Shown piece by piece: positions 25,180 through 47,005 of a stretch of 64,000 nucleotides of DNA. The number at the start of each line of letters is the position of its first letter. Position 1 is the first letter of the stretch. A program made the position numbers and the translations under genes. The notes under the pieces are model-generated. The model was not told the origin of the DNA. It saw only the letters and a program-made list of their open reading frames with translations, and ran no database searches. Where the stretch lies: positions 1,034 to 65,033 of the forward strand of contig CALCZR010000058.1 in assembly GCA_937903325.1 (NCBI GenBank). Reading direction: 5' to 3'. The DNA comes from an uncultured Candidatus Saccharibacteria bacterium. GTDB lineage: Bacteria; Patescibacteriota; Saccharimonadia; Saccharimonadales; AWTP1-31.

Positions 25180-25187
25180 TCACGAAC

Positions 25188-29640: not shown

Positions 29641-29641
29641 A

Positions 29642-30232: not shown

Positions 30233-30235
30233 ACT

Positions 30236-30565: not shown

Positions 30566-30566
30566 G

Positions 30567-31448
30567 TTATTTTTCCTCTCCAAAGCCCAAGTAGTTACCC
30601 GCATACCTCGTACCATTTAGCTCATGCCATAGCGCACAAACACCAGCGGTGTAGCTAATCGCTAATCCAAAGCTGTCTTTCTCTTCTTGTGTAAGTGGCT
30701 TGGTTGCCACTTCGTCATATCCTGAAAATAACATGTCGATAATTTCTTCTCTGGTGTAATCAGTTTCTAGGCGCATAGATAGGAAGGTGCGTGCTAAGTC
30801 AATAATGCGATAGTTATGTTCGGCTGTCTCCATATCGAACACCGCAGTTACCTCATCGCCTTCAGCAAATACATTACCGAGCCACAAGTCTCCGTGAATA
30901 AGTGTTTGTGGAAGATCGGTTTGGAACAGCTGCTCACCATCTGCGATGAGCTTTGTGATAGCTGGCTTTAGCCCACCTTCATATTTTTCAAGATCTTCAT
31001 GGACGTTCTTGGGCTGAAACCATTGCATCTTACTGAAAGGGACGTCAGTGTCCTCAAGCGCGTCGTGAAACTGTGCCAAGGTTGACCCGAAACTACGAAT
31101 AAGACCGAATGAAGCAATTTTTGGAACTTCACCTGCGATACGTTCACTTAAAGTAAAGGCCAGGCCATTGTGTTCACCGACATGCTTACCATTATCAAAC
31201 GTCAGGTAGTGAGGGGTACCAATGCCAACCTCGGCTAGTCGGTGCTGCATTTCGACTTCGCGTTCAACCGTCTCAGGAAGTTGGAGTTTAAGAATTCGCA
31301 TGACAAATTCTGTACCATTGGCAGCTCTCAAGTTATAGGCATCGTTGGCAAAAGCATCACCGTTCTTTTCACTGGCAGCCAGCTCATCGGGTGCATAGTG
31401 ATGAAACAGTTCACTGAGGTCAGGAGTGGTAAGCGGCGCCTTAGTCAT
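30567..31448 (-). CDS. aminoglycoside phosphotransferase (APH) family kinase
   Basis: Catalytic loop LIHGDLWLGN and VFDMETA (DxD-type) motifs. Confidence 0.75.
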   Translation of the reverse strand: MTKAPLTTPDLSELFHHYAPDELAASEKNGDAFANDAYNLRAANGTEFVMRILKLQLPETVEREVEMQHRLAEVGIGTPHYLTFDNGKHVGEHNGLAFTLSERIAGEVPKIASFGLIRSFGSTLAQFHDALEDTDVPFSKMQWFQPKNVHEDLEKYEGGLKPAITKLIADGEQLFQTDLPQTLIHGDLWLGNVFAEGDEVTAVFDMETAEHNYRIIDLARTFLSMRLETDYTREEIIDMLFSGYDEVATKPLTQEEKDSFGLAISYTAGVCALWHELNGTRYAGNYLGFGEEK

Positions 31449-32473
31449 TACTTGCTTACCAATCCGTTTAACCTATCAGCAGTAGCGTCATCGACTTCGA
31501 TTTCTTGTACATTCTCAGCAAAACGACGATTGTTCTCTTCGCCAGGAAGTCGTATTTCTGTACCTTCTTTAGGCTTCTGTGACTTCAATTCAGTGTTTAG
31601 TGAGTCTACGGACTTTGCAAAGTCATCGCTCGTACCCATTGCTTTGGGATTAAATACGATAAGAACAGCACCATGTTCTTCCGGCACGAAGTTATCACTC
31701 ATTTCTGGGCTAGATGGCTGGCCTATGAGGCCACTGGTCAATAGCTCAAGGAGGTAGACCAGATAGTAGCCTTTGTAGCTACCACCCATGGGGACAATGT
31801 TACTCACGGGATCATTCGGATCGCTCTCTGGATCAACTGCTTCTTTGGCGTCCGTGGTAAAGTTGCCGCTACGATCAACGGCGGCGTTTTCTTGCAAGGG
31901 CTTACCACTCTTTAAGCTATCCATGAATTCAAAGAAAGGAATTTGCGAGGTTGCCATATCCACGCAGTGAATGTCTCCGTCTTTACCAGGGAAGCCATAG
32001 GCCATAGGGTTGGTACCAAACACACCGCGTGTTCCGTTGTGGGGCACAACCGCGCTGGGGCCGCCATTGCATACGGCAATTGCCACCAGCCCGCGCTTAG
32101 CAAGCCCCTGTACCCAAGCATGAAGGGTATGCATACTCTGCGAGTTAACGAACGAAGCCATGGCTATACCGTTTTTTACAGAACGTTCCTCAAGTTCATC
32201 GTGAATCCTCTTGATATACACCAACGGGCCCTGGCTACGGAAGTCTATCGACAAATACGATGGCAGATCGACTTTGTAGGCGATTGCATGGTCTTTATTC
32301 TTGATACTTGCTTCAAGATCACCAACAGTAGACTTTAATGGGTTAGAGCGAGGCGACTTCCGTATATGTGTCTCGATTGATTCATCGGCAAAATATTCAG
32401 CTTCCTTCAGTGAAACTACTTGCGATGCGGCAGCAATGAGTTTTTTCCGCAAGTCCTCTGTACTAATTTTCAT
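31448..32473 (-). CDS. Ldh_2 family (malate/L-lactate/ureidoglycolate-type) dehydrogenase
   Basis: VFGTNPMAYGFP motif and overall length. Starts at the internal ATG (MKISTEDL). Confidence 0.75.
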   Translation of the reverse strand: MKISTEDLRKKLIAAASQVVSLKEAEYFADESIETHIRKSPRSNPLKSTVGDLEASIKNKDHAIAYKVDLPSYLSIDFRSQGPLVYIKRIHDELEERSVKNGIAMASFVNSQSMHTLHAWVQGLAKRGLVAIAVCNGGPSAVVPHNGTRGVFGTNPMAYGFPGKDGDIHCVDMATSQIPFFEFMDSLKSGKPLQENAAVDRSGNFTTDAKEAVDPESDPNDPVSNIVPMGGSYKGYYLVYLLELLTSGLIGQPSSPEMSDNFVPEEHGAVLIVFNPKAMGTSDDFAKSVDSLNTELKSQKPKEGTEIRLPGEENNRRFAENVQEIEVDDATADRLNGLVSK

Positions 32474-32954
32474 CAGGAATCTCCTTGTTTGAGTAGTAAA
32501 CATTCGTAATCGACAAGTCACTGAGCCACTTTTGCAGAGCTTTATAAAGCTTCTCGTAGTAGCCTTGTTTGTATGCCTCTGTGGTTACCCACCAACTAGC
32601 ATCTACATCGTAGCCCAGCAGTTCCCCTGTAAGTGGTGTGCGTAGACCCATTGGGTATAGATAAAAACAGCCGATGTATGTACCAGGCATATCATAAACT
32701 GCATAAGCAAATGAGTCTCCGTCTCGAAACTCGCGTTCGTGCCAAGCAAGGTCTAGTACATCAAATTCCTCCGATACGGGTTCGGATGGCCATGTGCCGC
32801 CGCGTGTTTTTCGTATAATCTCTAGGCTGGAGTTGACCGCCTCCATGTCGGCTTTTAGGTCTGTCCGAGTTAGAGTTTTTGCCCGAAGATCTTCATACTC
32901 AAGCTCTCTCGGAGCCTGAAAGTTTAATTTTTTTGTAAGTTCTGCGTAGTTCAT
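32463..32954 (-). CDS. GNAT-like acetyltransferase family protein
   Basis: The DLAWHEREF...FAYAVY...IGCFYLYP pattern recalls a GNAT subfamily. Moderate confidence only. Confidence 0.5.
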   Translation of the reverse strand: MNYAELTKKLNFQAPRELEYEDLRAKTLTRTDLKADMEAVNSSLEIIRKTRGGTWPSEPVSEEFDVLDLAWHEREFRDGDSFAYAVYDMPGTYIGCFYLYPMGLRTPLTGELLGYDVDASWWVTTEAYKQGYYEKLYKALQKWLSDLSITNVYYSNKEIPDEN

Positions 32955-33340
32955 TACTCTAAGTTCTCGTCCAAGAACTGCTTAAGTGCTTCCATGTCTT
33001 CTTTTGTGTGGTCATAAAAATACGTTGCGATGCCTACTGATTCTGCGGTCTTGGCAGCTTCCGCACTGTGTTCAAAATAGACTACATCTTCTGGCTTGAG
33101 GCCGTATTTATCTAATAGAATCTGAAAGTATTGTGGGTCAGTCTTTTCGAGGTCATGCTTGAGGGTAAACACATCATAAGGCACTTGGTCTAGCTTGAAA
33201 TGCTTAAACTGCTCATCATTTGCACCTGTTAATACGATCTTATTGTTAGGGTAGGTTTCTAGGAGCTGGTGCATTGACTGTAAGATACTGCCATCTTCTA
33301 GAACTAAACCATTGATTGCGTCTACCAGTATTGTTTTCAT
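32954..33340 (-). CDS. HAD-like hydrolase (short form)
   Basis: N-terminal MKTILVDAINGLV (degenerate DxD motif I) and a C-terminal VYFEHS...A region. Starts at an internal ATG. Confidence 0.5.
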   Translation of the reverse strand: MKTILVDAINGLVLEDGSILQSMHQLLETYPNNKIVLTGANDEQFKHFKLDQVPYDVFTLKHDLEKTDPQYFQILLDKYGLKPEDVVYFEHSAEAAKTAESVGIATYFYDHTKEDMEALKQFLDENLE

Positions 33341-33508
33341 ACCTATAAGTATACCGTAAGATAACCACATCTATACCATTACTCTCCCATAATGCAAAAA
33401 TCGAGAGAAATCACTAACGATCTCTCCCGAAAGGCTGGAACATTTTGACTGTACCACGCTCAATTAATACAACCATGAGAGTAAAATAGTGTTAAAATCC
33501 ATTCCATT

Positions 33509-33820
33509 ATGAGTAAATCCAAAACATTCGTATTCGACGGGGGAGCCGGGACATATTGGCTCAATAGTTTTCTAGCATTCTTAATTACCATCCTTACACT
33601 AGGGATCTGCTATCCGTATGCTTTAGTCCTTAAACAACGTTGGATTGCCAATCACACGATTGTGGAGGGTAGAAGGCTAAAGTTTACGGGTACCGGAATT
33701 GGTCTTTTTGGAAACTGGATTAAGTGGCTGGTACTTATTGTCATCACTGTAGGTATTTATAGTATCTGGGTTACTCCTCGCGTTCACAGGTGGGTGGTAG
33801 AGCATACTGATTTCGCCTAA
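33509..33820 (+). CDS. DUF898 (YjgN)-like small membrane protein
   Basis: F.FDGGAGTYW...TLGICYPYA...RRLKFTGTG pattern, two TM segments. Confidence 0.5.
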   Translation: MSKSKTFVFDGGAGTYWLNSFLAFLITILTLGICYPYALVLKQRWIANHTIVEGRRLKFTGTGIGLFGNWIKWLVLIVITVGIYSIWVTPRVHRWVVEHTDFA

Positions 33821-33932
33821 AGATTTAAGAAATATTTAAGATTTAGATACATGCATACTGCTTATGTATATAATAATGTTTGTATTTGTTCAAGTTTGTG
33901 TGTTAGATTATTTACATACACGGAGGAGTACC

Positions 33933-34271
33933 ATGCGGGGTAGAAGCAAACTTAGACTAGCAGCATTTACAGTCAGCGTTTTCCAATTGGTTTATGCTCA
34001 CCCCGTCTTCGCTGCCACTGGCGGCGTAAGCAATGTAGAGAACTTTATTAAGTCCATCATTGCCGTCCTCTCTGCTATCGCCGGCCTTGTCGCAACACTA
34101 TTCCTGGTTGTTGGCGGTATCGGCTATATAACAAGCTCTGGCAATCCAGACAACCTTGACCGCGCCAAGCGAACTATTATGCACTCGCTCTACGGCTTAG
34201 CTATTGTCATCGGTGCATTCGTGGTTAGTAATATCGTTACCGAACTTGCAACAAAGGCGTTTGGGAGTTAG
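33933..34271 (+). CDS. type IV secretion pilin-like protein (VirB2 analogue, T4SS_pilin-like)
   Basis: ATG with GGAGGAG 5 nt upstream, signal peptide ending AHPVFAA, two TM helices flanking GYITSSGNPDNLDRAKR. Confidence 0.7.
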   Translation: MRGRSKLRLAAFTVSVFQLVYAHPVFAATGGVSNVENFIKSIIAVLSAIAGLVATLFLVVGGIGYITSSGNPDNLDRAKRTIMHSLYGLAIVIGAFVVSNIVTELATKAFGS

Positions 34272-34279
34272 GAACCAAG

Positions 34280-35728
34280 ATGTTGGGAATATCCGCCATG
34301 CCGCTCAGCATCATGGCCGATTCAGCGTCGGCTGCTTCCGTCATGCAAGCCTATGTTGCACCTGCCATTAGAACGCTCTGTGCCGTCGCATCAGTAGCTT
34401 GTATATTCTTCGTCATTTACGGTGGCTATAACTATATGACCAGTGCCGGTAACCCGGAGAGTCTTGCTCATGCCAAGAGAGTTATTAGGAATGCACTGCT
34501 TGGGCTTATCATTGTCATTGCTGCTGCAACACTTACCACAATCCTCACTAATGCTTACGGCGGCACTCACGTATCACAAGGCTCAAATCTACCGCAACTG
34601 CAAGCTATTGAACCAGATAAACCAAGTAATATCGTGGTGGCCGTCATTATTCGCGCCATCACTGGTGTACTTAACAATATCATCCAATCAGTCGCACAGC
34701 CCTTCTTAAGTGCCTTGTCGTATTTCACTACATCTACGGAACTTCTTGCCAAGAACTCGGCTGTCTTTAACTTGTGGCTAAGCATGGTCGGCATTACTGA
34801 TGCTTTATTTGTACTGGTAGTCGCCCTGGTTGGTTTTCATGTCATGAGTGCAACGACATTTGGTTTTGAAGAGATTGAATTCAAGCACCTATTACCTCGA
34901 CTGGCTCTTATCTTCCTGGCCATGAACACGTCAATTTTCCTCATTGACGGCATCATACAGGTCAGCAACGTCATGATTCGTGCCATTTCAGCAGCTGCCG
35001 GTGAAACTTCCATATGGAATGTATTAACGTTAGTCGTGAAACAATCTGGCAGTCAAAGCATAGCAGCACTGCTCATCATGATCGTGTTCCTCGTGTTCTC
35101 GGTCATTCTACTGGTTTACTATGTTGGACGACTGATTACCCTCTATATTGGGGCAGTCCTGTCTCCACTCGTTCTCTTAGCGTGGCTCATCCCAGGTTTT
35201 CGTGACTTTTCGGAGACTGCCGCCAAAACCTACCTAACCACCATCTTTGTACTGTTCGTACACGTCGTCATCTTGCAGCTATCCGCTTCGCTATTTATTG
35301 GTCTTGGGACGAGCGATCAGGTGCCTAACGTCTTGATGTCTATGGTAACTGGCCTTGCAACCCTAATTGCACTACTTAAAACCCAAAGTGTCATGATGCA
35401 GTTTAGCTACGTCAGCGGCGGTGCCCGCAACGCTCGTAAGCTAGGTGGCCAATTTGTAAACGGCGTTAGCCACATTACAACTCGTGGCGCAAAAGCCGCA
35501 GCCACCGTCACCGGTATTAAGAAAGTGATGTCTCGAAGCGAAGCTGGTAGCTCAAAGTCACCTACCAACAAACATTCAGATCCAAATCATACTCAACCGT
35601 TTTCAAATCGACCAAACACCAGTACCACACCTGCAAAACAAACCAACCGACCCAAGACCGGCACCACTACCAAAGCACCGAAACAATTATCTGAAGCAAA
35701 GGTTTCCAAGCCTATGGAGAAGAAATGA
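34280..35728 (+). CDS. fusion of a second pilin-like module with a polytopic VirB6/TrbL-like membrane domain
   Basis: The N terminus repeats the pilin motif (NYMTSAGNPESLAHAKR). At least 6 further TM segments follow, then a basic Thr/Pro/Lys-rich tail. Confidence 0.65.
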   Translation: MLGISAMPLSIMADSASAASVMQAYVAPAIRTLCAVASVACIFFVIYGGYNYMTSAGNPESLAHAKRVIRNALLGLIIVIAAATLTTILTNAYGGTHVSQGSNLPQLQAIEPDKPSNIVVAVIIRAITGVLNNIIQSVAQPFLSALSYFTTSTELLAKNSAVFNLWLSMVGITDALFVLVVALVGFHVMSATTFGFEEIEFKHLLPRLALIFLAMNTSIFLIDGIIQVSNVMIRAISAAAGETSIWNVLTLVVKQSGSQSIAALLIMIVFLVFSVILLVYYVGRLITLYIGAVLSPLVLLAWLIPGFRDFSETAAKTYLTTIFVLFVHVVILQLSASLFIGLGTSDQVPNVLMSMVTGLATLIALLKTQSVMMQFSYVSGGARNARKLGGQFVNGVSHITTRGAKAAATVTGIKKVMSRSEAGSSKSPTNKHSDPNHTQPFSNRPNTSTTPAKQTNRPKTGTTTKAPKQLSEAKVSKPMEKK

Positions 35729-36240
35729 AAGCAACCGTCGTCCCAGCTCAAATCACCACCATCGAAGACCGCATAGTCGGCAGCCTTGGAATGTCGCAGC
35801 TTGTGCTACTCATATTGCCAGTCATCCTTGGCGGTGGACTATTCATTGTCTTGCCGCCCACCATGCACTTAGCTCCTTACAAAATATCACTCATCGCCCT
35901 ACTAGCAGTCTTTTGTGCGACCATGTCGATCCGAATTAAAGGTCGGATCATACTACTATGGCTCGTTACGATTCTCCGCTATAACATCCGGCCTCGGTAC
36001 TACGTGTTCAACAAACGAAGTCAGCGTGGACGCGAGCAATATCTGCATGCTGTAGAACAAGAGCCGCCCAAAGAGAAAGAAACAAAGACAGTTACCAAGC
36101 TTAAAGAGTTACGCCTGAGCACCGCTGAGATTATCCAAGTCGAACGACTATTGGCCGATCCAGCAGCAAATGTTTTTTATGCAACTGACAAGAAAGGAAG
36201 ACTCAATGTCCGTATTACAGAAGTCAAACCGGAAAGCTAG
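35725..36240 (+). CDS. PrgI family (VirB3-like) T4SS membrane protein
   Basis: VPAQITTIEDRIVGSLGMSQLV followed by two TM helices. 4-nt overlap with the upstream gene. Confidence 0.65.
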   Translation: MKATVVPAQITTIEDRIVGSLGMSQLVLLILPVILGGGLFIVLPPTMHLAPYKISLIALLAVFCATMSIRIKGRIILLWLVTILRYNIRPRYYVFNKRSQRGREQYLHAVEQEPPKEKETKTVTKLKELRLSTAEIIQVERLLADPAANVFYATDKKGRLNVRITEVKPES

Positions 36241-36835
36241 CGCCCGCGACCAAATTGACATCCAAAGTGTCAAAAATGGAGTACTGATTCTGCCTGGCAA
36301 TAAATATCGAAAAGTCCTGAACGTTTCGCCAGTCAACTTTGAACTGCGCAGCGAAGACGAGCAGGATGCCATCATCGACACCTACGAAAGTTTCCTAAAC
36401 TCACTCGGTCATCCCTTACAGATTCTTATCCGCACCAGAGAACTCGATATGGATAAGTACTTAAGCGAACTCACGGACAAGCTGGCTGGTGAGGAAGTCC
36501 CTATCTACAAGCAACAACTGAAAAACTACGACGAGTTCATTAGGTCGCTCATCACCACCAACAAGATCTTATCTCGTTATTTCTACGTGATTGTGCCCTA
36601 TGACTTCACCGGTAAACTCGACTTCGACAGTATCCTAGAGCAACTTAACCTACGAGTCGATATTGTACAGAAAGGGCTGGCACGACTAGGTATGCAGTCA
36701 TCTGAACTTGGCAATCTCGAAGTGCTTGATCTGTTCTATAGCTTCTACAATCCGGAACAATCCAAGATCCAGCCGCTCACCAGTCAGGCGCTTGAATTGC
36801 TCCATACATCATTTATTAAAAAGGAGGCAGTATGA
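36206..36835 (+). CDS. VirB4-like protein, N-terminal domain encoded as a separate ORF
   Basis: The IDIQSVKNGVLIL..YRKVLNVSPVNFELRSEDEQDAIIDTYESFLNSL pattern is as at the N terminus of Gram-positive VirB4 homologues (Tn916 Orf16 / TrsE type). Confidence 0.65.
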   Translation: MSVLQKSNRKASARDQIDIQSVKNGVLILPGNKYRKVLNVSPVNFELRSEDEQDAIIDTYESFLNSLGHPLQILIRTRELDMDKYLSELTDKLAGEEVPIYKQQLKNYDEFIRSLITTNKILSRYFYVIVPYDFTGKLDFDSILEQLNLRVDIVQKGLARLGMQSSELGNLEVLDLFYSFYNPEQSKIQPLTSQALELLHTSFIKKEAV

Positions 36836-38571
36836 CCAATCCTATGACACTAGTCCGCGACTGGAAGAAACAGCGCGACGAACGACCCAAAGAATTAAGC
36901 CTGCTGTTTGGCGAGCAAGATACGACTGATTTGTTCTCCTACGCTGGACTAGAAGAACAGGCAGATTACTTATGCATTGACGGAACCTATGTCCGTACGC
37001 TATTCATTTCGGGCTATCCGTTCGTGGCAAATAGTGGCTGGCTCGATTCATTGGTCAACTTCAACCATGATGTCGATATCACGCATCACATCCACGAAGT
37101 AAATGCCCTGCAAGCATTGCCTAAGTTGCATCGTAAGATTACTGAGCTAGAAAGCACTAAACGCCAAATGATTCGGTCGGGTAAGATCGTAGGGTCTGAG
37201 ATTACCGATCCGCTTGATTCAGCCATGGAGCTACGCGACAAGATTCAGCGCGGCCAAGAAAAGTTGTTTCAAGTTTCAATCTCGGTAGCACTCCGAGCCA
37301 AAACACTACTGGAGCTCGACAAGATCACTAAGATGCTCGAAACAACGCTATCTGCACGGTTGTTCTATACCAAAGTAGCTCGCTACCAACAGCTCGAAGC
37401 CCTACAAACGGTACTTCCTAGAGGTGAAGATCAACTCAGCCAGAAACGAAACCTCGATAGTAGTTCGGCGGCCTTAACCTTTCCGTTCATGTCTTCAGAG
37501 TTAGTGCACGAATCAGGCATTCTGTATGGAGTAAACAATTCCAATAACTCACTAGTGATTCTTGATCGTTTCAGCTTACATAATGCCAACTCCATCACTT
37601 TTGCACAATCTGGTTCAGGTAAAAGCTACACGACTAAAGTTGAGATCCTGCGTCAGCTTATGCACGGCACTAAAGTAATCGTGATTGACCCCGAACGCGA
37701 ATATAAAAACCTCACGGAGTCAGTCGGCGGTACATACATCAAGCTATCTACCAGAAGCAAAGAAAAGATTAACCCCTTTGATCTTGCCTCGACATTTCAT
37801 ACCAAGAAAGACCTCTCCGAACACATCCAAGATTTGACGGAAGTAATTAGTCTGATGGCCGAGGGGCTCGACAAGCGCGAAAAGGCAGCCGTAGACAAGG
37901 CCATTCTGAAAATATATGAGGAAAGCGACCAAGGTGAGCAGCCACTGCTACAGGATCTGTACGCCGAACTGCGAGAACTTGGTCAACTTCAACTTAGTGA
38001 AAGACTAGAGAAATATATCAGCGGCTCATTGGCCGGTGTATTCAACACTGCAACCAACATTAGACTCACCAACCGGCTGATTGTTTTCGACATTAAGGAT
38101 ATGCCAAATAATCTGCGTCCAATCATGATGCTTATTATCTCTAACTTTGTGCAAAACCAAGTTAAAGCTAAGCCGGAGAAACGGCTGCTGGTCATTGACG
38201 AGGGCTGGCTACTGCTTGAGCATGAAGAAAGTGCGCGGTTTGTCGCTGGCCTCGTTCGTCGTGCTCGAAAGTACTACTTAGGCGTTGCCATCATATCTCA
38301 GCAAGCCAATGACTTCTTGCACAGCGACTATGGCCGAGCCATTGCTTCGCAAAGTGCCCTGCGTATTCTGATGCGACAAGACACCACCACTATTAAGAAT
38401 GTGGTAAGCGAGTTTAGTCTGAGTGGTTTTGAGGAAAATTACTTATTAACCTGCGGTAGAGGCGAGGCACTGATTATTGCTGACCAAAATCATGTAGCAG
38501 TCACCGTCAAAGCTAGTAACAAAGAGCATCCACTCATTACGACCGATCCGGCAGAAGTCTTTAGCCCATGA
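36832..38571 (+). CDS. VirB4-like T4SS ATPase (C-terminal ATPase part)
   Basis: Walker A QSGSGKSYTTK, Walker B LLVIDEGW, IISQQ motif. ATGA overlap with the previous ORF and its own AAGGAGG RBS. Confidence 0.88.
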   Translation: MTNPMTLVRDWKKQRDERPKELSLLFGEQDTTDLFSYAGLEEQADYLCIDGTYVRTLFISGYPFVANSGWLDSLVNFNHDVDITHHIHEVNALQALPKLHRKITELESTKRQMIRSGKIVGSEITDPLDSAMELRDKIQRGQEKLFQVSISVALRAKTLLELDKITKMLETTLSARLFYTKVARYQQLEALQTVLPRGEDQLSQKRNLDSSSAALTFPFMSSELVHESGILYGVNNSNNSLVILDRFSLHNANSITFAQSGSGKSYTTKVEILRQLMHGTKVIVIDPEREYKNLTESVGGTYIKLSTRSKEKINPFDLASTFHTKKDLSEHIQDLTEVISLMAEGLDKREKAAVDKAILKIYEESDQGEQPLLQDLYAELRELGQLQLSERLEKYISGSLAGVFNTATNIRLTNRLIVFDIKDMPNNLRPIMMLIISNFVQNQVKAKPEKRLLVIDEGWLLLEHEESARFVAGLVRRARKYYLGVAIISQQANDFLHSDYGRAIASQSALRILMRQDTTTIKNVVSEFSLSGFEENYLLTCGRGEALIIADQNHVAVTVKASNKEHPLITTDPAEVFSP

Positions 38572-39155
38572 GCCCTGTACTTCTCCTAACGTTTTCAGGA
38601 AGCATCAAAAAGCACTTCTGGGTCGCTATGGCGACACTGGTGGTTCTAGTATCCATGCCTATGATCGTTGTCATTTCGTTTGGGCAGAACGTACTGCAAT
38701 ATTTATCTGGTAGTGGCGCGGAAACTACTTACGCCATATCAACCGAAGTACAAGGGTTCTACGAAGGCCCAGAAGTTGCTGGCGATACCTACGAGTGGGG
38801 TAACTGCACGTATTGGGCTTACGCGCTACGCCTTAAAGATGGCCATCCCATTCCGACCACATGGGGCAATGCTAACACTTGGGATGACGGCGCACTGCGA
38901 GATGGATACGAAGTAAATAGCACGCCAGAAGTAGGAGCAATTTTCCAGACAGACGAAGGCAAATGGGGGCACGTAGCCTACGTCAGCGAAGTTAATGACA
39001 GTACTGGCGAGTGGAAGATATCTGAGATGAACGTAAAAGGTCGCAATGTTGTCAGTAGCCGTACGTTTGCCGCTAGCTCAGCTAAGTATTTCAACTTTAT
39101 TCATTACAAAATAGGAGACATAGCATGGAACTTCCAGCCTACGTTGCTATTGTAA
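38568..39155 (+). CDS. CHAP-domain peptidoglycan hydrolase (VirB1 functional analogue)
   Basis: N-terminal TM anchor, catalytic GNCTYWAY (Cys) and WGHVAYV (His). Confidence 0.8.
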   Translation: MSPVLLLTFSGSIKKHFWVAMATLVVLVSMPMIVVISFGQNVLQYLSGSGAETTYAISTEVQGFYEGPEVAGDTYEWGNCTYWAYALRLKDGHPIPTTWGNANTWDDGALRDGYEVNSTPEVGAIFQTDEGKWGHVAYVSEVNDSTGEWKISEMNVKGRNVVSSRTFAASSAKYFNFIHYKIGDIAWNFQPTLLL

Positions 39156-41707
39156 TGCACTACTGTTTGGTAGTGGTAATAACTTTTGGGGTACTGCTGG
39201 CAGTATATGGACTCTTCGTCGCAGTACGTCTATATCTCAACCGCAAATACCTTAAGAACCGTGAGCTTATCTGGCTAGAACTTACACCGCCAGCCACGCT
39301 TGAGAAAACACCAGAATCAACAACGCAACTTTTTTCGGTTATACATGGTTTGCGCACTGCCCGCTCTTTCAAAGATCATGTACTTAACCGTGCACCGGTA
39401 CTTGATTTTGAGATTGTATCCTCCAAGCAGGAGGGTATTCGTTATCTGGTTTGTATAGAACGGTCATGGTCAGACGTTCTCCAAAAAGCTGTAGCTGCCT
39501 ATATCCCCGATGCTAAAGTACGACCTACAGAATACACACCGTCACCGACTCAAGCCCTTATCGAGTTTAAGCAGCAACAGCATTACGTTCTGCCACTTAC
39601 CACGCCACGTAACTTCGAACAACACGACCCCTTGTCGTATGTGACGGCGGCAATGACAAAATTGAGTGATGATGAACAATTAACCATGCAACTTGTCATC
39701 ACGCCCGTAAAGCTCAGTGAAGCTACTCGGCTCTCCAAACGCATTAGGAGTAATGAAGATATCCTCCAGAAAGTTTCGCACGGGGGTATTTCCCGAATTA
39801 GTAAAGTCAGCGGCATGGTTGGTAGTGGCCTGCTGAATATGACGGATGCTATTGGCGAAACCTACCATGGGTCAACCTCCGCATATAAGCACAACGCATC
39901 GAGTCGAGATGCCGCTTTTCAGACCCAAGTACAGAAGCGCCAACGACCGGCTCGAACGCTGAGCGCCTTTGAGTTGGAGCTCATGGAGTCTATGAACCAA
40001 AAGGTCTCACAGCAACTGTTCCAGGTAAGCCTACGGATTATGACCAATGGCCAGCAAGCACACAGACAGCTTGCCGCTCTCAGGTCAGCACTGGATGGCT
40101 ACTCCATGCCACCGTACCAAGCACTAAAAGCAAAGCTACGTCTTCCACTGTTTGATGAATATCACAAAAGGTTGGCCAACAAACGACTACCAAATCTATC
40201 TCGGAAACGATCCCTAATCCTATCTGCAACCGAAGTTGCCAGCCTATATCACTTTCCGTCAACTCGAATCAGTAAAACAGATAATCTCGTCACCTCACTG
40301 AGCCGTACGCTCCCAGCTCCCATATCCCTGAAGAATAATCCTCAGCTCGATGTTATCTTGGGCGAGAATACTCACCGTGATGTTCATACACCGATTGGTT
40401 TGACTGCCGCTGAACGAGAGCGCCACATCTACATTATTGGTGGCACGGGTAACGGCAAGACCACCATGCTTCAATATGGCATCGTACAAGACATGCAGAA
40501 CGGTAAGGGACTGGCTGTTGTTGATCCCCATGGAGATATGGCCGAAACATTATTACGGCACGTGCCGGAGCACCGAATTAAAGATGTCGTGTACTTCAAC
40601 CCTGACGACATCGAACGACCAATAGGCATGAATCTCCTTGAGATCCCAGATGGTTTAAATGAGGATCAGAAAAACAAGGAAAAGGATCTTGTTACCGAAT
40701 CTCTTGTCTCCGTTTTCCGCAAAATCTTCTCCGAAGAAGATACCGGTGGTCACCGTATCGAATATGTCCTACGTAGTACGATTCAGACAGCCTTAACTGT
40801 TAAAGATGCAACAATCTTTACGATCTTTGAACTCCTCAATGATCCCGTGTATAGAACAAAGGTGGTCGCCAAACTCGATAATAAGCACCTCATCAACTTC
40901 TGGAAACACGAGCTTGGCAAAGCCGGAGACATGCAAAAGGTAAAAATGGCAGCCGGTATCACTGCTAAGATCGGCCGCTTCCTGTTCTCGGATAGTGCTA
41001 AGCGTGTTCTAGAGCAACCGAAATCAACTATAAACTTCGAGGAGATCATAGATGAAGGTAAGATCCTTATCTGCAACTTCTCGAAAGGGCTCATCGGTGA
41101 AGATACATCCGAGCTGTTCGGTATTACCGTTTTAGCCAAGCTCCAACTAGCCAGCTTACGACGTGCCCGCGTACGTCAGGGCACTCGTAAACCATTCTAT
41201 TTGTATGTTGACGAGTTCCAGAACTTTGCTACTCAATCATTCGTCCAAATGCTGAGCGAGTCACGTAAATATAAGTTATTCCTGACCATGGCCGAGCAGT
41301 CTACCTCCCAACAGAAAGATCAACGCATGGTGCAAATTGTACTTGCCAATGTGGGGACAATCCTGTGCTTCAGAACTGGTAATCCAGCGGACGAGAAGCT
41401 TCTGCTACCACTCTTTAGCCCATACATTAATGAGGGTGAAATATCCAACCAGCCGCCATTCAACTTCTATGCACGCTTTGCCTCAACAATCTCCCAGGAA
41501 CCGCTGTCTGGCAATACCATTGTTCTAGAGAGCGATGGTGATGAAACGATAGCCGAAAAAGTACGCAAAGCATCCCGAGCCACCTACGGTAACGACCCCT
41601 TGCCACAAGAAAAGCCTAGGAAAACAGCCAGCTCTGGAGACAAAGCAAAGTCGAATAACCAACGCAAAAAGACAGCGCAAGGCGACCCAGAAGATACACG
41701 CAACTAA
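39125..41707 (+). CDS. type IV coupling protein (VirD4/TraD-like ATPase) with a long N-terminal extension
   Basis: N-terminal TM, Walker A IIGGTGNGKTT, VVDPHGD, Walker B YLYVDEFQNF. An alternative ATG at 39155 overlaps the CHAP stop (TAATG). Confidence 0.8.
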   Translation: MELPAYVAIVMHYCLVVVITFGVLLAVYGLFVAVRLYLNRKYLKNRELIWLELTPPATLEKTPESTTQLFSVIHGLRTARSFKDHVLNRAPVLDFEIVSSKQEGIRYLVCIERSWSDVLQKAVAAYIPDAKVRPTEYTPSPTQALIEFKQQQHYVLPLTTPRNFEQHDPLSYVTAAMTKLSDDEQLTMQLVITPVKLSEATRLSKRIRSNEDILQKVSHGGISRISKVSGMVGSGLLNMTDAIGETYHGSTSAYKHNASSRDAAFQTQVQKRQRPARTLSAFELELMESMNQKVSQQLFQVSLRIMTNGQQAHRQLAALRSALDGYSMPPYQALKAKLRLPLFDEYHKRLANKRLPNLSRKRSLILSATEVASLYHFPSTRISKTDNLVTSLSRTLPAPISLKNNPQLDVILGENTHRDVHTPIGLTAAERERHIYIIGGTGNGKTTMLQYGIVQDMQNGKGLAVVDPHGDMAETLLRHVPEHRIKDVVYFNPDDIERPIGMNLLEIPDGLNEDQKNKEKDLVTESLVSVFRKIFSEEDTGGHRIEYVLRSTIQTALTVKDATIFTIFELLNDPVYRTKVVAKLDNKHLINFWKHELGKAGDMQKVKMAAGITAKIGRFLFSDSAKRVLEQPKSTINFEEIIDEGKILICNFSKGLIGEDTSELFGITVLAKLQLASLRRARVRQGTRKPFYLYVDEFQNFATQSFVQMLSESRKYKLFLTMAEQSTSQQKDQRMVQIVLANVGTILCFRTGNPADEKLLLPLFSPYINEGEISNQPPFNFYARFASTISQEPLSGNTIVLESDGDETIAEKVRKASRATYGNDPLPQEKPRKTASSGDKAKSNNQRKKTAQGDPEDTRN

Positions 41708-41727
41708 GAGATGGTACAATAAACTTA

Positions 41728-41940
41728 ATGAGCGACAGAGAACTAAAACAACTTGGCAATAGGATACGCGAAGTCCGTAAGAAGCGAGGGTTAACGCAAC
41801 TTGAAGTTGCTAACTTAGCAGATACCAGCTCCAACTACTTTGCTGAGATTGAGCGAGGCCAAGCCAACCCGTCCTACTCTATGCTGACAGCAATCGCAAA
41901 AGCACTCAAAGTTAAGCTGAGTGATCTAATCCCTTCTTAG
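41728..41940 (+). CDS. XRE family helix-turn-helix transcriptional regulator
   Basis: IREVRKKRGLTQLEVANLADTSSNYFAEIERG is a classic Cro/C1 HTH. Confidence 0.85.
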   Translation: MSDRELKQLGNRIREVRKKRGLTQLEVANLADTSSNYFAEIERGQANPSYSMLTAIAKALKVKLSDLIPS

Positions 41941-41996
41941 AAGCACCTCAATAAGCTTAATTAACAGAGTAGCCGTATTTTTGCTATACTTTATTC

Positions 41997-42686
41997 ATGA
42001 AATCTGTTGGAGTAATTGGCGGACTTGGTCCTGAAACAACTGCTGAGTTTTACTTGGAAGTCATTTTTCAGTGTCAAAAACGAGATGATAAGCAGCGCCC
42101 TTTAATCGTTATATCTAGCGTACCACTTCTTTTTGAAATCGAAAGAGATCTCATTGAGTCCAATACGGGCAAAGAGCGCTACATTCCGTTTCTAATAGAA
42201 GAGGCGAAGCGACTCGAAAAAAGCGGGGTCGATTTTTTGGTCATGCCCTGCAACTCGCTCCATGTTTTCATAAACGAAATCAGGAGTGCAGTTAGTATTC
42301 CTGTACTAAGCATAGTTGAAGAGACGGCCAAATATCTTAAAAAGCAGGGCTTCGGCAAAGTCGGGCTTATATCAACCTCGGCTACTGTTGCAAACAACGT
42401 CTACGAGAGCAAATTACGGGATGAAGGCATCGAGTACGTTACGCCAGATGACCTGCAACGAGCCAAAATGGATAAAATCATCCAGAGGCTCATAAATGGT
42501 CAGCACCTCAACCAAGATAGGGAGCTGATACTCGAGGTCGTCAAAGGTCTATCAACACAAGACGTAGATAGTGTCGCCTTAGCATGTACCGATCTACAGC
42601 TTCTACTTCCAAGTAGTAGCGAAGTACCGATTTTTGACACGATGAAAGTCTTAGCAGAAAGTACCGTTGACACCATTCTCTCGTAG
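41997..42686 (+). CDS. aspartate/glutamate racemase family protein (aspartate racemase-like)
   Basis: GGLGPETT, and catalytic Cys motifs MPCNSLH and LACTDL. Confidence 0.8.
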   Translation: MKSVGVIGGLGPETTAEFYLEVIFQCQKRDDKQRPLIVISSVPLLFEIERDLIESNTGKERYIPFLIEEAKRLEKSGVDFLVMPCNSLHVFINEIRSAVSIPVLSIVEETAKYLKKQGFGKVGLISTSATVANNVYESKLRDEGIEYVTPDDLQRAKMDKIIQRLINGQHLNQDRELILEVVKGLSTQDVDSVALACTDLQLLLPSSSEVPIFDTMKVLAESTVDTILS

Positions 42687-42712
42687 AGCAATGGAATTGG
42701 TATAGATACATT

Positions 42713-43357
42713 ATGAAACTCTATCTATCGTCTTACCGCATGGGCAATCACACTGAGGAACTTAAGAAGCTTGTCGGCAAAGCTAATGCTAAAGTTGCGG
42801 TGTGTGTTAACGCCAGTGATGGTTCGGATGACGTTGAACGCAAAGCAGAGGGGCTTGCCCGGGAGCTTGAGGACATGAGAAGTCTCGGCTTTGAGGCCGA
42901 GCAACTAGACTTGCGTGAGTACTTTGGCAAAAGTGGACTTGCCGAAAAGATGAAATCCTACGATCTGATCTGGGTTAGGGGTGGCAATACATTCCTGCTT
43001 GCCAAAGCATTTCGGCAGAGTGGTTTTGATAAAGTCTTTGCCGACCAAGTTGTATCTGGTGGGCTCGTATATGCTGGATACAGTGCTGCATTCTGCGTAC
43101 TTAATACTTCCTTGCGTGGCGTAGAACTTGTTGATGACAAAGACGCTCAAGCCGAAGGCTACGAGCCTGGTGAGATCTGGGAAGGGTTAGGTGTCATAGA
43201 CTTTTATCCGATAGTGCACTTTAGGTCAGATCACCATGAGTCTGAGCTTGTTGAGAAAGAATACGAGTTTGTAGTCAAAAACAATATCCCCCACAAGACG
43301 TTCAAAGATGGAGATGTATACCTAGTTAATGGTTCCAAGCAGAGAACACTTTCTTAG
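42713..43357 (+). CDS. peptidase S51 / peptidase E-like protein (second paralogue)
   Basis: IWVRGGNTFLL and AGYSAA (nucleophile Ser) motifs. Confidence 0.7.
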   Translation: MKLYLSSYRMGNHTEELKKLVGKANAKVAVCVNASDGSDDVERKAEGLARELEDMRSLGFEAEQLDLREYFGKSGLAEKMKSYDLIWVRGGNTFLLAKAFRQSGFDKVFADQVVSGGLVYAGYSAAFCVLNTSLRGVELVDDKDAQAEGYEPGEIWEGLGVIDFYPIVHFRSDHHESELVEKEYEFVVKNNIPHKTFKDGDVYLVNGSKQRTLS

Positions 43358-43391
43358 TTGCGATAGGCTGCCTACTAGTTCGTCATAGGGG

Positions 43392-43595
43392 TTAAGACTT
43401 TGTTTCCCTGTACCACTTCTCAAGTAAATCGGGATTGGTATGAGATAGCTCGTGGAAGTTGGCATACATTTCTTCTAGCTTCTTAATAGCCATTTCGGGC
43501 GTGACGGTATCTTCTGGATATACAAGCTTTAGATGTCGAATCATCTTTTCGATATCGGCTTCGTTTAGTTCGTAGTCGTCTGGTAAATCGTTCAT
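43392..43595 (-). CDS. hypothetical small acidic protein
   Basis: 67 aa. Its start lies 1 nt after the upstream PLD-like stop. Confidence 0.5.
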   Translation of the reverse strand: MNDLPDDYELNEADIEKMIRHLKLVYPEDTVTPEMAIKKLEEMYANFHELSHTNPDLLEKWYRETKS

Positions 43596-43596
43596 A

Positions 43597-44076
43597 TTAT
43601 CTCCTAGTATATCTTTTTACATTTATAAACCCTAGTAACTTATCCGCTAACTCAGCGGAGTCCGTGCGCCACATGATCTCACAGCTATCTATTTGTGACA
43701 GGATGTTAAGGCTCCCATTCCATACGATCTCTTTATCAATTACGGCAAGTTTGCGATGATGCCGAGCCGTGTAGAATACCTCCACCCCGATAGACTGTAG
43801 AGCTGCTATCGCATTGAGCGCCTGAACTTCGTATTCCTCATTATGCTCAATAGGATCACGAGTATTGACGATGATCGACACACCTCTGCTACGCAAACGT
43901 GAGAGCAATGGGAATAATGCATTAATTCGGTTCGTTGTGATGAAGGGACACTCAATAACCACTTCGTTTTGAGCAAATCGTAAGTCCTCTTCAAAAGCTC
44001 TGTAGAATGACTCCTGATCGTACATTTGGACATGACCACTAGGTACACTCCTGATGCGTCGAAATATGTTTAGCAT
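43597..44076 (-). CDS. phospholipase D-like (HKD) domain protein, Nuc-type candidate nuclease
   Basis: A single HxK(x)4D motif (HHRKLAVID) followed by NGSLN. About 160 aa, as in single-HKD nucleases. Confidence 0.75.
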   Translation of the reverse strand: MLNIFRRIRSVPSGHVQMYDQESFYRAFEEDLRFAQNEVVIECPFITTNRINALFPLLSRLRSRGVSIIVNTRDPIEHNEEYEVQALNAIAALQSIGVEVFYTARHHRKLAVIDKEIVWNGSLNILSQIDSCEIMWRTDSAELADKLLGFINVKRYTRR

Positions 44077-44231
44077 ACATCGCCCTCCTCGTAGATAAGC
44101 TTGCCATCTATATCGTGTACACCAAGTCTTCTGAGGTTGTGCGCTAAGTCAATAAGTGATTGAATAAGGGTATCTGTTATTTCTAGGTGCTGTGGATAAG
44201 TGTTCGCAACTGCACCCTCCCACCTAGCCAA
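44070..44231 (-). other. 53-codon open frame entering repeat A; candidate displaced native 3' end of the recombinase gene or a small CDS
   Basis: Open from TTG GCT AGG TGG GAG... to a TAA that overlaps the PLD-like ATG (GTATGCTAA). It has the same codon register across GCT AGG as the recombinase ORF across the tRNA. Confidence 0.35.
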
Positions 44232-44233
44232 AC
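44131..44233. repeat. direct repeat copy A, ending in a tRNA-Gln 3'-end-like core (candidate attR)
   Basis: CCCTCCCACCTAGCCA (44215-44230) versus the tRNA CCCTCCGCCCTAGCCA (16708-16723), 14/16 by hand. Roughly three-quarters identical to copy B over about 103 nt, ungapped. Confidence 0.6.
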
Positions 44234-44237
44234 TGAG

Positions 44238-44264
44238 AACCCATCGAAAGATGGGTTTTTTGTT
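44238..44264 (+). terminator. orphan plus-strand intrinsic terminator directly after repeat A
   Basis: AACCCATC-GAAA-GATGGGTT followed by TTTTTTGTTT. No plus-strand gene upstream. Confidence 0.7.
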
Positions 44265-44286
44265 TAGGACAGATCATTCTTATAAT

Positions 44287-44802
44287 CTACTGTGTAGCTT
44301 GTCGAATTCGATCAATTAGACTCAGAACGTCTACAGGTCCGTAGCCATAGCCAGCATCAGAGCTCATACCATCCTGCTTGAATGATGCAGTACCCCAGCC
44401 TCCACTCGGTAGTTGACTGACTATATCTACAGAGCATCTACCATGATCTGCAAATACTGACTGGTTCATTGTGCCACCCAAAGATACCCTAACAATTGTA
44501 GGAGTTTGGGATCCATAAATTGCTGCAGATGCTACTGAAAATATTGGATATTCTAAGCCACTAGCTTCTACTAAACGTTCGGCATCGCCCTCTGGCAACC
44601 ACGGGAAAGGCGCGGTCAGTACGGTAGTTGGATGTTCCGCATTATCGCTGAATCCGCCCATAGGTCCTTGGCGCCAATTACCTAATACGGCTTCATCATA
44701 ACCTTCTCGTCCTATTAGCTCATTACCTAACTCTTGTAGCCCTACTGCTTCTGGGCAAAGACCAATATCTAGCTTTGAAATCACTGTACAGCTCCTAAAC
44801 AA
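44287..44802 (-). CDS. hypothetical protein
   Basis: 171-codon ORF (TTG start, GTG alternative 6 codons in) between the two repeats. No family recognised. Confidence 0.45.
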   Translation of the reverse strand: MFRSCTVISKLDIGLCPEAVGLQELGNELIGREGYDEAVLGNWRQGPMGGFSDNAEHPTTVLTAPFPWLPEGDAERLVEASGLEYPIFSVASAAIYGSQTPTIVRVSLGGTMNQSVFADHGRCSVDIVSQLPSGGWGTASFKQDGMSSDAGYGYGPVDVLSLIDRIRQATQ

Positions 44803-44895
44803 CTTCTTAATATATAGTATTATTCAATAAACAAAATAAAATGTAAAGTCATATCTCTGAATAGTCATGTACTCTCATTGAGTATACTGAAACTC

Positions 44896-44998
44896 CTGAG
44901 CTCGTATGCCAACTTTATAAGTGATTGAACCAGCCTATCTGACACTTCAAAATCTTGTGGAAAAGTGTTCGAATTTACACCCTACCACCTAGCCAAAG
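44896..44998. repeat. direct repeat copy B (more degenerate tRNA 3'-end-like core)
   Basis: GTTCGAAT + TTACA + CCCTACCACCTAGCCA (core 44980-44995, 13/16 to the tRNA end). The frame homologous to copy A is interrupted by TAG. Confidence 0.6.
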
Positions 44999-45004
44999 TA
45001 AAAC

Positions 45005-45031
45005 GATCACCGTTTGGTGGTCATTTTATTT
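45005..45031. terminator. intrinsic terminator after repeat B, usable from both strands
   Basis: GATCACC-GTTT-GGTGGTC followed by ATTTTATTT. The reverse strand has GTTTTACTTT after the hairpin. It lies just downstream of the 45053..45949 gene. Confidence 0.6.
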
Positions 45032-45052
45032 AGCAACTGTTCCCTAGACCCC

Positions 45053-46479: not shown

Positions 46480-46605
46480 GCCTGCTCACCGTACAAATAG
46501 AAACGAGTGAACCACCCCTACAACACAGTAAGTTGTAGTCGGGGTACATTCATTTACCACGCTTTGTAGACAGCAACAATACCATATATTCTAAACTACC
46601 GCCAA

Positions 46606-46875: not shown

Positions 46876-47005
46876 AATATATGTAGGTAGCGGGGTACAT
46901 TACGACGAAGCAGTTCGTAGGTATTGCATTGACTATTCTTTATATGTAATCCTGTATCTAACAGGCTGCAACGATTCTAGTTGTAGCCAATATCCAGGAG
47001 AGTGA

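Follow-up and report, generated by a model that had tools for sequence, protein, structure and literature searches.

A Gram-positive-type type IV secretion operon of Saccharimonadales with a coupling-protein-like ATPase and a link to tRNA-abutting integrative elements

Among the closest described relatives of the system reported here is the T4SS (type IV secretion system) of Ca. Southlakia epibionticum ML1, whose cluster SEML1_0006-0019 is essential for growth on the host according to transposon sequencing (Tn-seq), resembles Gram-positive conjugative systems, includes an unusual essential pilin array and contains no coupling protein or relaxase recognised by its authors (Wang 2023, PMC10633639). 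A survey of Patescibacteria found VirB4 in 2,417 of 3,035 genomes (2,474 VirB4 proteins) as a monophyletic clade nested in the mating-pair formation class FATA (MPF-FATA), with chromosomal TrsD (the commonest), PrgI/VirB3, VirB6 and VirB2-like genes near virB4; only 148 of 5,713 homologues of the type IV coupling protein (T4CP) and 15 relaxases lay near virB4, relaxases were few, MOBC being the commonest, and the system was judged to have been co-opted away from conjugation (Quiñonero-Coronel 2025, PMC12102498). A 2025 FEMS review restates this co-option and speculates on a pilus-mediated conduit to the host and on the uptake of molecules. The T4SS itself is therefore already known, having been described in Saccharibacteria in 2020-2025 and being essential in the one strain tested, and the central question is what it transports. 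Here, we describe a seven-gene T4SS block at positions 33933-41707 (plus strand) of a 64,000-nt stretch, referred to as the window, from an uncultured Candidatus Saccharibacteria bacterium (assembly GCA_937903325.1, contig CALCZR010000058.1, positions 1,034 to 65,033). Three points go beyond the published work: a T4CP-like ATPase is encoded in the operon throughout the lineage, the block is a discrete module in hypervariable DNA, and it is tied to elements that abut tRNA genes. The reading that we favour, with a probability of roughly 0.45, is that of a resident contact/secretion machine that has kept a capacity for DNA transfer and serves integrative islands.

The first-pass annotation of the window, made from its letters alone, had proposed seven co-directional T4SS open reading frames (ORFs); they are real, and each assignment is backed by profile searches:

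33933-34271, plus strand: VirB2/TrbC-like T4SS pilin, 112 aa (ATG at 33933; longest ORF from 33864)
34280-35728, plus strand: 482-aa fusion of a pilin-like N-terminus and a polytopic membrane protein of the TrbL/VirB6 kind (Pfam)
35725-36240, plus strand: PrgI (VirB3-like) membrane protein, 171 aa (Pfam PrgI)
36206-36835, plus strand: 209-aa TrsD-like protein, homologous to the N-terminal domain of VirB4 (longest ORF from 36170)
36832-38571, plus strand: VirB4 ATPase of the CD1110/MPF-FATA type, 579 aa (NCBIfam conju_CD1110 equivalog)
38568-39155, plus strand: 195-aa CHAP peptidoglycan hydrolase with a membrane anchor, a functional analogue of VirB1 (Pfam CHAP, E 7e-18)
39125-41707, plus strand: T4CP-like ATPase, 860 aa (alternative start 39155; short Pfam T4CP matches and fold)

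The pilin, whose start at 33933 is the one picked by the gene caller in a sister contig, matches the Pfam families TrbC/VirB2 (E 2.7e-10) and T4SS_pilin (E 4.5e-10) and has a signal-peptide-like N-terminus and two hydrophobic segments. In the 482-aa fusion, T4SS_pilin covers residues 36-89 (30 bits, cut-off 26.6) and TrbL_4 residues 120-386 (35.8 bits, cut-off 27), with about 8-10 hydrophobic segments and a low-complexity tail rich in S/T/P/K. The PrgI match is marginal (27.1 bits against a cut-off of 27.0, E 6.2e-6), and the protein begins with a hydrophobic hairpin. The TrsD-like protein matches positions 5-172 of the NCBIfam CD1110-family VirB4 model (E 1.5e-11) and the NCBIfam TrsD/TraD model (E 3e-6), and it is precomputed as PF26593 TraC-like. 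VirB4 passes the conju_CD1110 cut-off (356.2 bits, cut-off 325, E 3.6e-106), matches P-loop_TraG, AAA_10 and CagE_TrbE_VirB in Pfam, and shows, when its translation is read, the Walker A motif AQSGSGKS and the Walker B motif LLVIDE. The CHAP protein has a single, N-terminal hydrophobic segment. The checks that had been proposed for VirB4, T4CP, PrgI, T4SS_pilin and CHAP all gave matches, that of PrgI being marginal and those of the T4CP short.

Successive ORFs are separated by +8, -4, -35, -4, -4 and -1/-31 nt, so the overlaps of 1-4 nt first reported hold for four junctions (-4, -4, -4 and -1) but not for those of +8 and -35 nt, nor for the last one (-31) when the start at 39125 is used. Scanning the operon for promoters and terminators was uninformative, promoter-like sites being fewer than in shuffled sequences and no convincing internal terminator being present. 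Pfam and NCBIfam profile searches revealed no VirB7-10 homologues among the seven block proteins or their immediate neighbours, and no VirB8-like or adhesin components were detected for the block; the Gram-positive, monoderm (MPF-FATA-like) type and the lack of outer-membrane parts, both suggested at the outset, are supported. Features of the Patescibacteria clade are found throughout, namely a CD1110-type VirB4, an adjacent TrsD, PrgI plus TrbL, VirB2-like pilins and no VirB7/9/10. Judged by its component families, the block can be securely assigned to the monoderm-type (MPF-FATA-like) T4SSs, as the Saccharimonadales form of the Patescibacteria-type system, a kind that derives from monoderm MPF-FATA machinery.

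Comparison by gene content, gene order and domain sets shows that the window T4SS is the same kind of system as the one essential for epibiotic growth in S. epibionticum. Both come from the same phylum and class, have VirB6-like, PrgI, TrsD-like (SEML1_0009) and VirB4 (SEML1_0008) genes and cell-wall hydrolases in the same order, carry VirB2-like pilins in the cluster and do so without VirB7-10. In the ML1 cluster, which adjoins dnaA, the pilins form a divergent array of six genes, the VirB6-like protein has 998 aa, the hydrolases have 1113 and 643 aa, and the T4CP-like genes lie outside the cluster (SEML1_0142, essential, and SEML1_0293, non-essential, the latter with the Pfam domain set of the 860-aa ATPase), whereas the window block is compact (7.8 kb), with one pilin plus the pilin-VirB6 fusion, a small CHAP protein and the T4CP inside the operon, and lies in a tRNA-linked island. 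The surveyed Patescibacteria systems likewise have TrsD, PrgI/VirB3, VirB6 and VirB2-like pilins beside virB4; unlike them, the Saccharimonadales lineage has the T4CP-like ATPase at +2 from VirB4 in 65 loci and a divergent Replic_Relax/MOBC-like gene within about 7 kb in 18% of loci. Unless another set is named, the locus counts given here and below refer to the best 80 of 244 relatives found by a VirB4 protein scan with one genome per species.

The MPF-FATA modules of Bacillota (CTn2/CD1110, the TrsD-TrsE pair of pGO1 and PrgI of pCF10) are alike in their CD1110 score, PrgI, hydrolase and T4CP, and pGO1 also has a TrsD-like gene upstream of VirB4. However, their VirB4 proteins are just 28-36% identical to that of the window, which, unlike them, has VirB2-like pilins (unusual for Gram-positive systems), no adjacent canonical MOB relaxase, and a T4SS that is near-universal in the host lineage rather than patchy. 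Outside the candidate phyla radiation (CPR), the nearest VirB4 proteins, the top ones of which bear a CD1110-family annotation, are encoded on Bacillota and Actinomycetota plasmids (30-36% identity), the best (36.5%) and closest in the plasmid database lying at 351.8-361.4 kb of an 898-kb “plasmid” of Pontibacillus sp. ALD_SL1 (NZ_CP062975.1; locus L098). There, the genes upstream encode a pilin-like protein of the Mbov_0395 type and three hypothetical proteins (779, 116 and 274 aa), and downstream lies the gene of a 1050-aa M23 (DD-metalloendopeptidase) peptidase, in a cluster that adjoins flagellar genes; by size and order alone, the 779-, 116- and 274-aa proteins resemble VirB6, PrgI and TrsD of S. 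epibionticum.

The last gene of the operon had been called a coupling ATPase, which stands as regards its TrwB fold and Walker motifs, while the profile matches are short: TrwB_AAD_bind (23.5 bits, cut-off 20.5), T4SS-DNA_transf (24.0 bits, cut-off 20.1) and TraG-D_C (23.2 bits, cut-off 22) each align over only about 50-75 residues. Since a sequence-only profile search of the PDB gave no more than a Walker-A-level match to TrwB (E 3.4e-4), a fold comparison was needed. The protein is laid out as an N-terminal transmembrane helix (hydrophobic residues 4-44), a DUF8128 domain and a TrwB-like NTPase domain with an all-alpha insertion, and carries the Walker A motif GGTGNGKT and the Walker B motif YLYVDE; in comparison with a typical T4CP, the DUF8128 part is an additional N-terminal domain of about 300 aa. 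Structure prediction, another check proposed at the outset, gave a TrwB-like fold: in the AlphaFold2 (AF2) model, the mean predicted local distance difference test score (pLDDT) is 65.9, rising to about 75-90 in the ATPase domain (residues 410-820), and helices 513-643 are inserted between strands. Foldseek aligned this model with TrwB at target-normalised TM-scores of 0.60-0.68 over about 415 columns, and also with Cag-beta, DotL and HerA, VirB4 (TrwK) appearing with similar E-values. About 1,700 homologues were found, with precomputed PF26449, PF10412, PF01935 and PF12696. The model suggests a T4CP-like protein with a TrwB-type fold that includes the all-alpha insertion. Both this ATPase and the Replic_Relax protein described below would, we infer, be missed by the >50% profile-coverage rule of the published survey.

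Some similarities of the two ATPases point in another direction, that of a machine importing DNA or nucleotides into a cell unable to make nucleotides, like archaeal Ced or Helicobacter ComB. VirB4 has weak NCBIfam similarity to CedB (E 1e-11) and CedD (E 7.5e-8), as does the 860-aa ATPase to CedD (E 4.4e-11); Saccharibacteria generally do without de novo nucleotide synthesis (PMC10633639), and the FEMS review speculates on the taking up of host molecules. However, the Ced matches are far below their cut-offs and much weaker than those to conjugative VirB4 and T4CP models, nothing specific to Ced or ComB was found among the components of the block, and natural transformation of S. epibionticum needs ComEC and is not required for growth, unlike the essential T4SS. 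Import is thus a very improbable function.

The 80 loci come from nearly exclusively Saccharibacteria/Saccharimonadales metagenome-assembled genomes (MAGs), almost all from separate assemblies, and their VirB4 proteins are 70-93% identical to that of the window. Wherever contigs reach far enough, the seven-gene order is unchanged: relative to VirB4, the pilin family is present at -4/-3 in 68 loci, the pilin-TrbL family at -3 in 67 (members shown have about 460-507 aa), the PrgI homologue at -2 in 60 of the 61 loci in which its family occurs, the TrsD-like gene at -1 in 76 and CHAP at +1 in 57. The +1 slot is filled in 12 loci (e.g. L040, gene 12) by another family (fam 10), by eye an M23 peptidase, that replaces CHAP and indicates modular replacement of the VirB1 analogue. 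What had been described as VirB4 in two ORFs is present as such, but as a conserved pair of TrsD-like and VirB4 genes: all 78 loci compared have them as separate genes, none as a fusion, with varying frame offsets, so this is a genuine two-gene arrangement. A split VirB4 pseudogene or frameshift is ruled out by the same count and offsets, and the pair fits the published TrsD association. One MAG, CAZNVG01, gave three different T4SS copies on short contigs (L001, L052 and L057; VirB4 78-85% mutually identical), which represent multiple elements of a single genome or else a bin that mixes several Saccharibacteria populations.

At the nucleotide level, the window resembles other species only at 33.5-41.9 kb, with an identity of 65-75%, a range that VirB4 proteins of about 80% identity accompany and that is not exceeded even by the closest locus, with its 93% VirB4 protein identity. 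The G+C content at third codon positions (GC3) of the T4SS genes (0.493) equals that of the core genes (0.49), while that of the cargo at 20.9-33.4 kb is 0.416. Recent horizontal acquisition of the T4SS is unsupported in view of this GC3 and the low nucleotide identity across species. The T4SS block is a long-resident, discrete conserved module of the lineage under strong purifying selection, with no recent acquisition.

The DNA around it behaves quite differently. Flanks are unconserved: among the 80 loci, no non-T4SS family reaches more than 30, those that recur stand to the left as well as to the right of the block, and species pairs with at least 98% identical VirB4 have only about 37% of flank families in common. 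In pairwise blastn, L048 and L050 are 84.8% identical over 7.7 kb with nothing alignable outside the block, and L023 and L024 90% over 9.4 kb, the only match outside being one relocated 1.8-kb segment. The block is a sharply bounded conserved module within hypervariable DNA.

In the window, this hypervariable DNA is an island that starts at a tRNA gene:

16649-16723, plus strand: tRNA-Gln(ttg) (ARAGORN and Rfam)
16614-18392, minus strand: large serine recombinase, about 592 aa from M15 (Pfam Resolvase and Recombinase; NCBIfam XisF-like, E 7e-9)
18759-19592, plus strand: Replic_Relax (MOBC-class) protein, candidate relaxase (Pfam PF13814)
20163-20558, minus strand: DUF3768 protein, third conserved member of the element head (Pfam DUF3768, E 5.7e-22)
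44112-44997, no strand: strain-variable junction, with 121-nt direct repeats at 44112-44232 and 44877-44997 (72% identity) flanking a 171-aa ORF

Ordinary chromosomal genes lie on both sides, at 1-16.5 kb (DnaX, DnaB, RecR, CysS, glycosyltransferases and penicillin-binding-type peptidases) and from about 51 kb (a two-component system, a polyprenyl synthase and an AddA-like helicase); the window is a piece of Saccharibacteria (Saccharimonadales) chromosome. The 3' end of the recombinase gene overlaps the 3' end of tRNA-Gln, the ORF reading antisense through the tRNA, which probably marks both the site of integration and the island's left end. Its product is 49% identical to the recombinase of locus L044, which likewise abuts tRNA-Gln. 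From there, 15.5 kb upstream of the T4SS block, the order is recombinase, Replic_Relax, DUF7995, DUF3768, about 13 kb of accessory enzymes and the T4SS, so that the tRNA-Gln element contains or adjoins the block. In the divergent intergenic region between a small ORF on the recombinase side and Replic_Relax, a 21-nt inverted repeat (18593-18636, 86% complementary, 2-nt spacer) could be an operator or an origin-of-transfer (oriT)-like hairpin.

PF13814 corresponds to the MobC relaxase class (PMC5357655, Table 1). Among the aligned members of the window's Replic_Relax family, seven of eight match PF13814 (best E 8.6e-13), and a homologue is named “replication-relaxation family protein” by NCBI. 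An AF2 model of the protein (pLDDT 89.7) has an N-terminal winged helix-turn-helix (wHTH) and a restriction-endonuclease-like domain, and Foldseek returned for the model FokI (E 1.3e-4), Bse634I and MarR-type wHTH proteins at low TM-scores (0.3), a likeness at fold level only. P156 and E198 are invariant in the alignment and D157 is nearly so, but the lysine of a (D/E)xK motif is not conserved.

The same arrangement recurs in a family of Saccharibacteria integrative elements (window 16614-20558; L092, L094 and L101-L158) with a conserved head, which runs from a tRNA gene through an oppositely oriented large serine recombinase and one or two small ORFs to Replic_Relax and DUF3768. In most loci scanned for tRNAs, the gene for the recombinase has its 3' end next to or within a tRNA gene (Trp, Gln, Leu, Glu or Ala). 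Bacillota elements that use serine recombinases and MOBC relaxases likewise have one end occupied by a large serine recombinase, along with a PF13814 (Replic_Relax) candidate for DNA processing and cargo, while abutment to tRNA genes runs through the whole family here. Integrative and conjugative elements (ICEs) with a serine recombinase exist in Firmicutes, Tn5397 with TndX being an example; our literature searches found no such serine-recombinase/Replic_Relax elements described for Patescibacteria. A minimal member, of about 4.6 kb (L122, 1404-6184), consists of the serine recombinase, Replic_Relax and DUF3768 between two opposed tRNA-Glu(ctc) genes. Cargo of the family includes CsoR/P-type ATPase metal-resistance sets. 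Two contigs of JGI sample 3300056850 (L090 and L091) carry one and the same Replic_Relax island, in which the CsoR/P-type ATPase cassettes are duplicated; they have a common gene order from about 6.9 kb onward and different genes upstream, pointing to two insertion contexts or strains.

Counted from the T4SS side, 49 of the 80 loci have a flank of 3 kb or more, and nine of these (18%) show Replic_Relax at a distance of 0.7-6.6 kb downstream of the T4CP, mostly convergent with the operon, and a serine recombinase stands beside it wherever the sequence allows. This is an enrichment of about 27-fold over an assumed background of about one copy per Mb. Counted from the element side, a metagenome scan with a tighter Replic_Relax subfamily (the divergent eight-sequence alignment has no conserved stretch) gave 60 loci, with T4SS genes within 10 kb of Replic_Relax in eight (6 of the 31 whose flank is 5 kb or longer), a divergent serine recombinase within 1.5 kb in 28 of 34, and DUF3768 just downstream in most of the 60. 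The T4SS is on the inner side of the head at tRNA-Gln (window, L044, L113 and L119), tRNA-Trp (L092) and tRNA-Ala (L158), and in L158 the T4CP directly adjoins Replic_Relax. The T4SS block and the serine recombinase/Replic_Relax/DUF3768 module are thus significantly linked in both directions.

Taken at face value, the island might be an active ICE reaching from tRNA-Gln (16.7 kb) to about 44.3 kb, in which the seven-gene block would be the mating-pore module, with no role in host interaction, the serine recombinase would excise the element, Replic_Relax would nick oriT and the T4CP would dock the nucleoprotein. All nominal modules are indeed present in one island: mating-pore genes plus a T4CP, a candidate relaxase, and, in the manner of an integrase at an element end beside its target, a recombinase that overlaps tRNA-Gln, as it abuts tRNA genes across the element family. 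Also in favour are the 21-nt inverted repeat between recombinase and Replic_Relax, although no oriT was identified, T4SS blocks inside such elements at three tRNA types, the classical layout of L158 with the T4CP beside the relaxase candidate, hypervariable flanks rich in cargo and defence genes with homology edges sharp at the block, and a cargo GC3 below that of the core. ICEs are, however, usually patchy in distribution, whereas this VirB4 clade is near-universal and essentially single-copy in the phylum; the T4SS has the GC3 of the core, there is no sign of recent transfer between genomes, and in S. epibionticum growth depends on the homologous system. We consider an active ICE unlikely.

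The borders of the island bear on the same point. The first-pass annotation had described a recombinase-bounded island with a Replic_Relax protein, of which Replic_Relax and one recombinase (16614-18392) are present in the window; a second recombinase bounding the island there is ruled out by tblastn and profile searches. Sister-strain contigs from other samples, all with the island at the same site, are 99.9% identical to 29125-44265 by blastn and have no match beyond; the longest, of 30.8 kb, would by arithmetic end near tRNA-Gln. Just past 44265 they carry a different serine recombinase of 392-430 aa (L081, 15384-16562; L083, 5483-6775), accompanied by a racemase and an ABC-F gene, so “recombinase-bounded” holds for the sister strains only. 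That recombinase has no tblastn match within the window, whose ORFs at 44287-48130 have no Pfam or NCBIfam matches. The 44265 site, beside the PLD nuclease described below, looks like a second recombinase-driven insertion or cassette site.

This second insertion is one of the points for the opposite extreme, a purely co-opted host-interaction machine that moves no DNA, around which elements accumulate in a permissive integration hotspot. The different serine-recombinase insertion in sister strains marks such a hotspot, at least 20 Replic_Relax elements have only cargo (e.g. metal resistance) within 10 kb, and strong conservation with native composition is in keeping with co-option. The T4SS genes are essential in ML1 co-culture, with no relaxase or T4CP recognised in the cluster (PMC10633639), and the published survey came to the same conclusion (PMC12102498). 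Co-option leaves unexplained, however, why a T4CP-like ATPase whose motifs are intact has stayed in the operon in 65 loci, why, at different tRNAs, the T4SS is placed inward of the junction between tRNA and recombinase, and why Replic_Relax shows its roughly 27-fold, orientation-biased enrichment downstream of the T4CP. A machine that moves no DNA at all is, in our view, improbable.

Several observations weigh against our favoured reading of a resident machine serving integrative islands, and some of them burden the ICE view as well. About 82-88% of the T4SS loci have no relaxase or recombinase within about 7-10 kb of fetched flank; in L149, the T4SS is exceptionally on the outer side of the recombinase; and the T4SS-element linkage could reflect shared residence in an integration hotspot. 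The window Replic_Relax match is barely over the cut-off (26.2 bits, cut-off 25.3) and covers only profile positions 1-74, the wHTH part, and in ML1 SEML1_0293 is non-essential and unlinked to the cluster, and no relaxase has been recognised. In the window, there is no direct repeat with the tRNA-Gln 3' end and there are no long flanking repeats that could serve as attachment (att) sites, nor was a right border of the island found; when the peptidase of the left flank and the response regulator of the right flank were looked up by exact match, every context that came back bore the island and none was an empty site, while the 606-aa recombinase ORF had no exact match, probably because of a misplaced start. 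No presence/absence polymorphism was seen among the sister-strain contigs, and no near-identical T4SS copies occurred in clearly unrelated genomes; the differing tRNA sites imply older mobility only.

The first-pass annotation had left the choice between DNA transfer and host contact open, and this hedge was apt: with linkage and tRNA abutment on one side and conservation without nearby markers on the other, DNA transfer is neither refuted nor shown. It had also set conservation and synteny free of mobile-element markers against transfer; this applies in part, the 80 loci being syntenic and about 82-88% of them lacking such markers nearby, yet the block is linked to the recombinase/Replic_Relax module. 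The reading of the window system as conjugative is plausible, and under the favoured reading the capacity for DNA transfer would have been kept, because the coupling protein is retained and the block is physically linked to recombinase/Replic_Relax/DUF3768 elements.

In the working model of the parts, drawn from the component families, VirB4 and the separately encoded TrsD-like homologue of its N-domain would dock on a membrane platform of PrgI/VirB3 and the TrbL/VirB6-like protein, and the membrane-anchored CHAP hydrolase would make a local opening in the peptidoglycan. A short surface filament that touches the partner cell may be built from the VirB2-like pilin together with the pilin-like head of the VirB6 fusion, while the in-operon T4CP-like ATPase would select substrates and feed the channel, so that the T4SS could double as the cell-contact channel of the epibiont and as a conduit for islands. 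The stronger proposition, that the T4SSs of environmental Saccharimonadales still are the transfer apparatus of a large family of tRNA-integrating elements made up of a large serine recombinase, a divergent MOBC-type (Replic_Relax) nuclease and DUF3768, and that the DUF8128-T4CP is their coupling protein, we regard as rather doubtful. If true, these would be the first native conjugative or mobilizable elements of the CPR, and the “missing relaxase” would be explained; if the elements make use of the T4SS, DNA would pass between CPR bacteria by conjugation, and gene flow, including metal-resistance and defence cargo, would be testable in cultivable Saccharibacteria-Actinomyces systems.

Among the genes next to the block, three small ones have recurrent counterparts:

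41728-41940, plus strand: small XRE-type HTH regulator, directly 3' of the operon (Pfam HTH_31/HTH_3)
43392-43595, minus strand: 67-aa partner ORF of the PLD nuclease (equated by eye only with a family of about 74 aa in 18 loci)
43597-44076, minus strand: single-HKD PLD-family (Nuc-like) nuclease (Pfam PLDc_2, E 9e-10; HxK(x)4D motif)

The PLD nuclease and its partner are the most frequent non-T4SS neighbours, the PLD family occurring in 30 of the 80 loci (window excluded), and in the window the XRE gene, a racemase and an S51 peptidase lie between the T4SS and the nuclease. The XRE family is found near the T4SS in 21 loci at variable positions. Recurrent flank families, recognised by eye unless supported by Pfam in the window, are PLD/Nuc-like nuclease, XRE, HxlR, Replic_Relax and DUF3768, and further, by eye, Dcm methylase, Mrr-like nuclease, reverse transcriptase, RadC and Fic.

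The accessory run at 20941-33370 (minus strand) consists of about 18 small enzymes, including a GNAT-APH fusion (486 aa), APH, NUDIX, an Exo_endo_phos nuclease, DUF952, PNPOx, YCII and Ldh_2, and its GC3 of 0.416 against 0.49 in the core suggests that it was acquired later than the T4SS. An identity of the GNAT-APH fusion and the APH cargo as antibiotic-resistance genes was rejected, no NCBIfam resistance model coming near its cut-off.

Finally, in L036, L038 and L042, an apparent diversity-generating retroelement (DGR) is located three to four genes upstream of the T4SS block, comprising a reverse transcriptase, a 128-aa protein read as an Avd-like four-helix bundle, and a 335-482-aa protein (fam 21/22/15). 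The N-terminus of the latter is type-IV-pilin-like, and its C-terminus ends in ...NFGFRVAR, an ending that we take to be typical of DGR variable regions.

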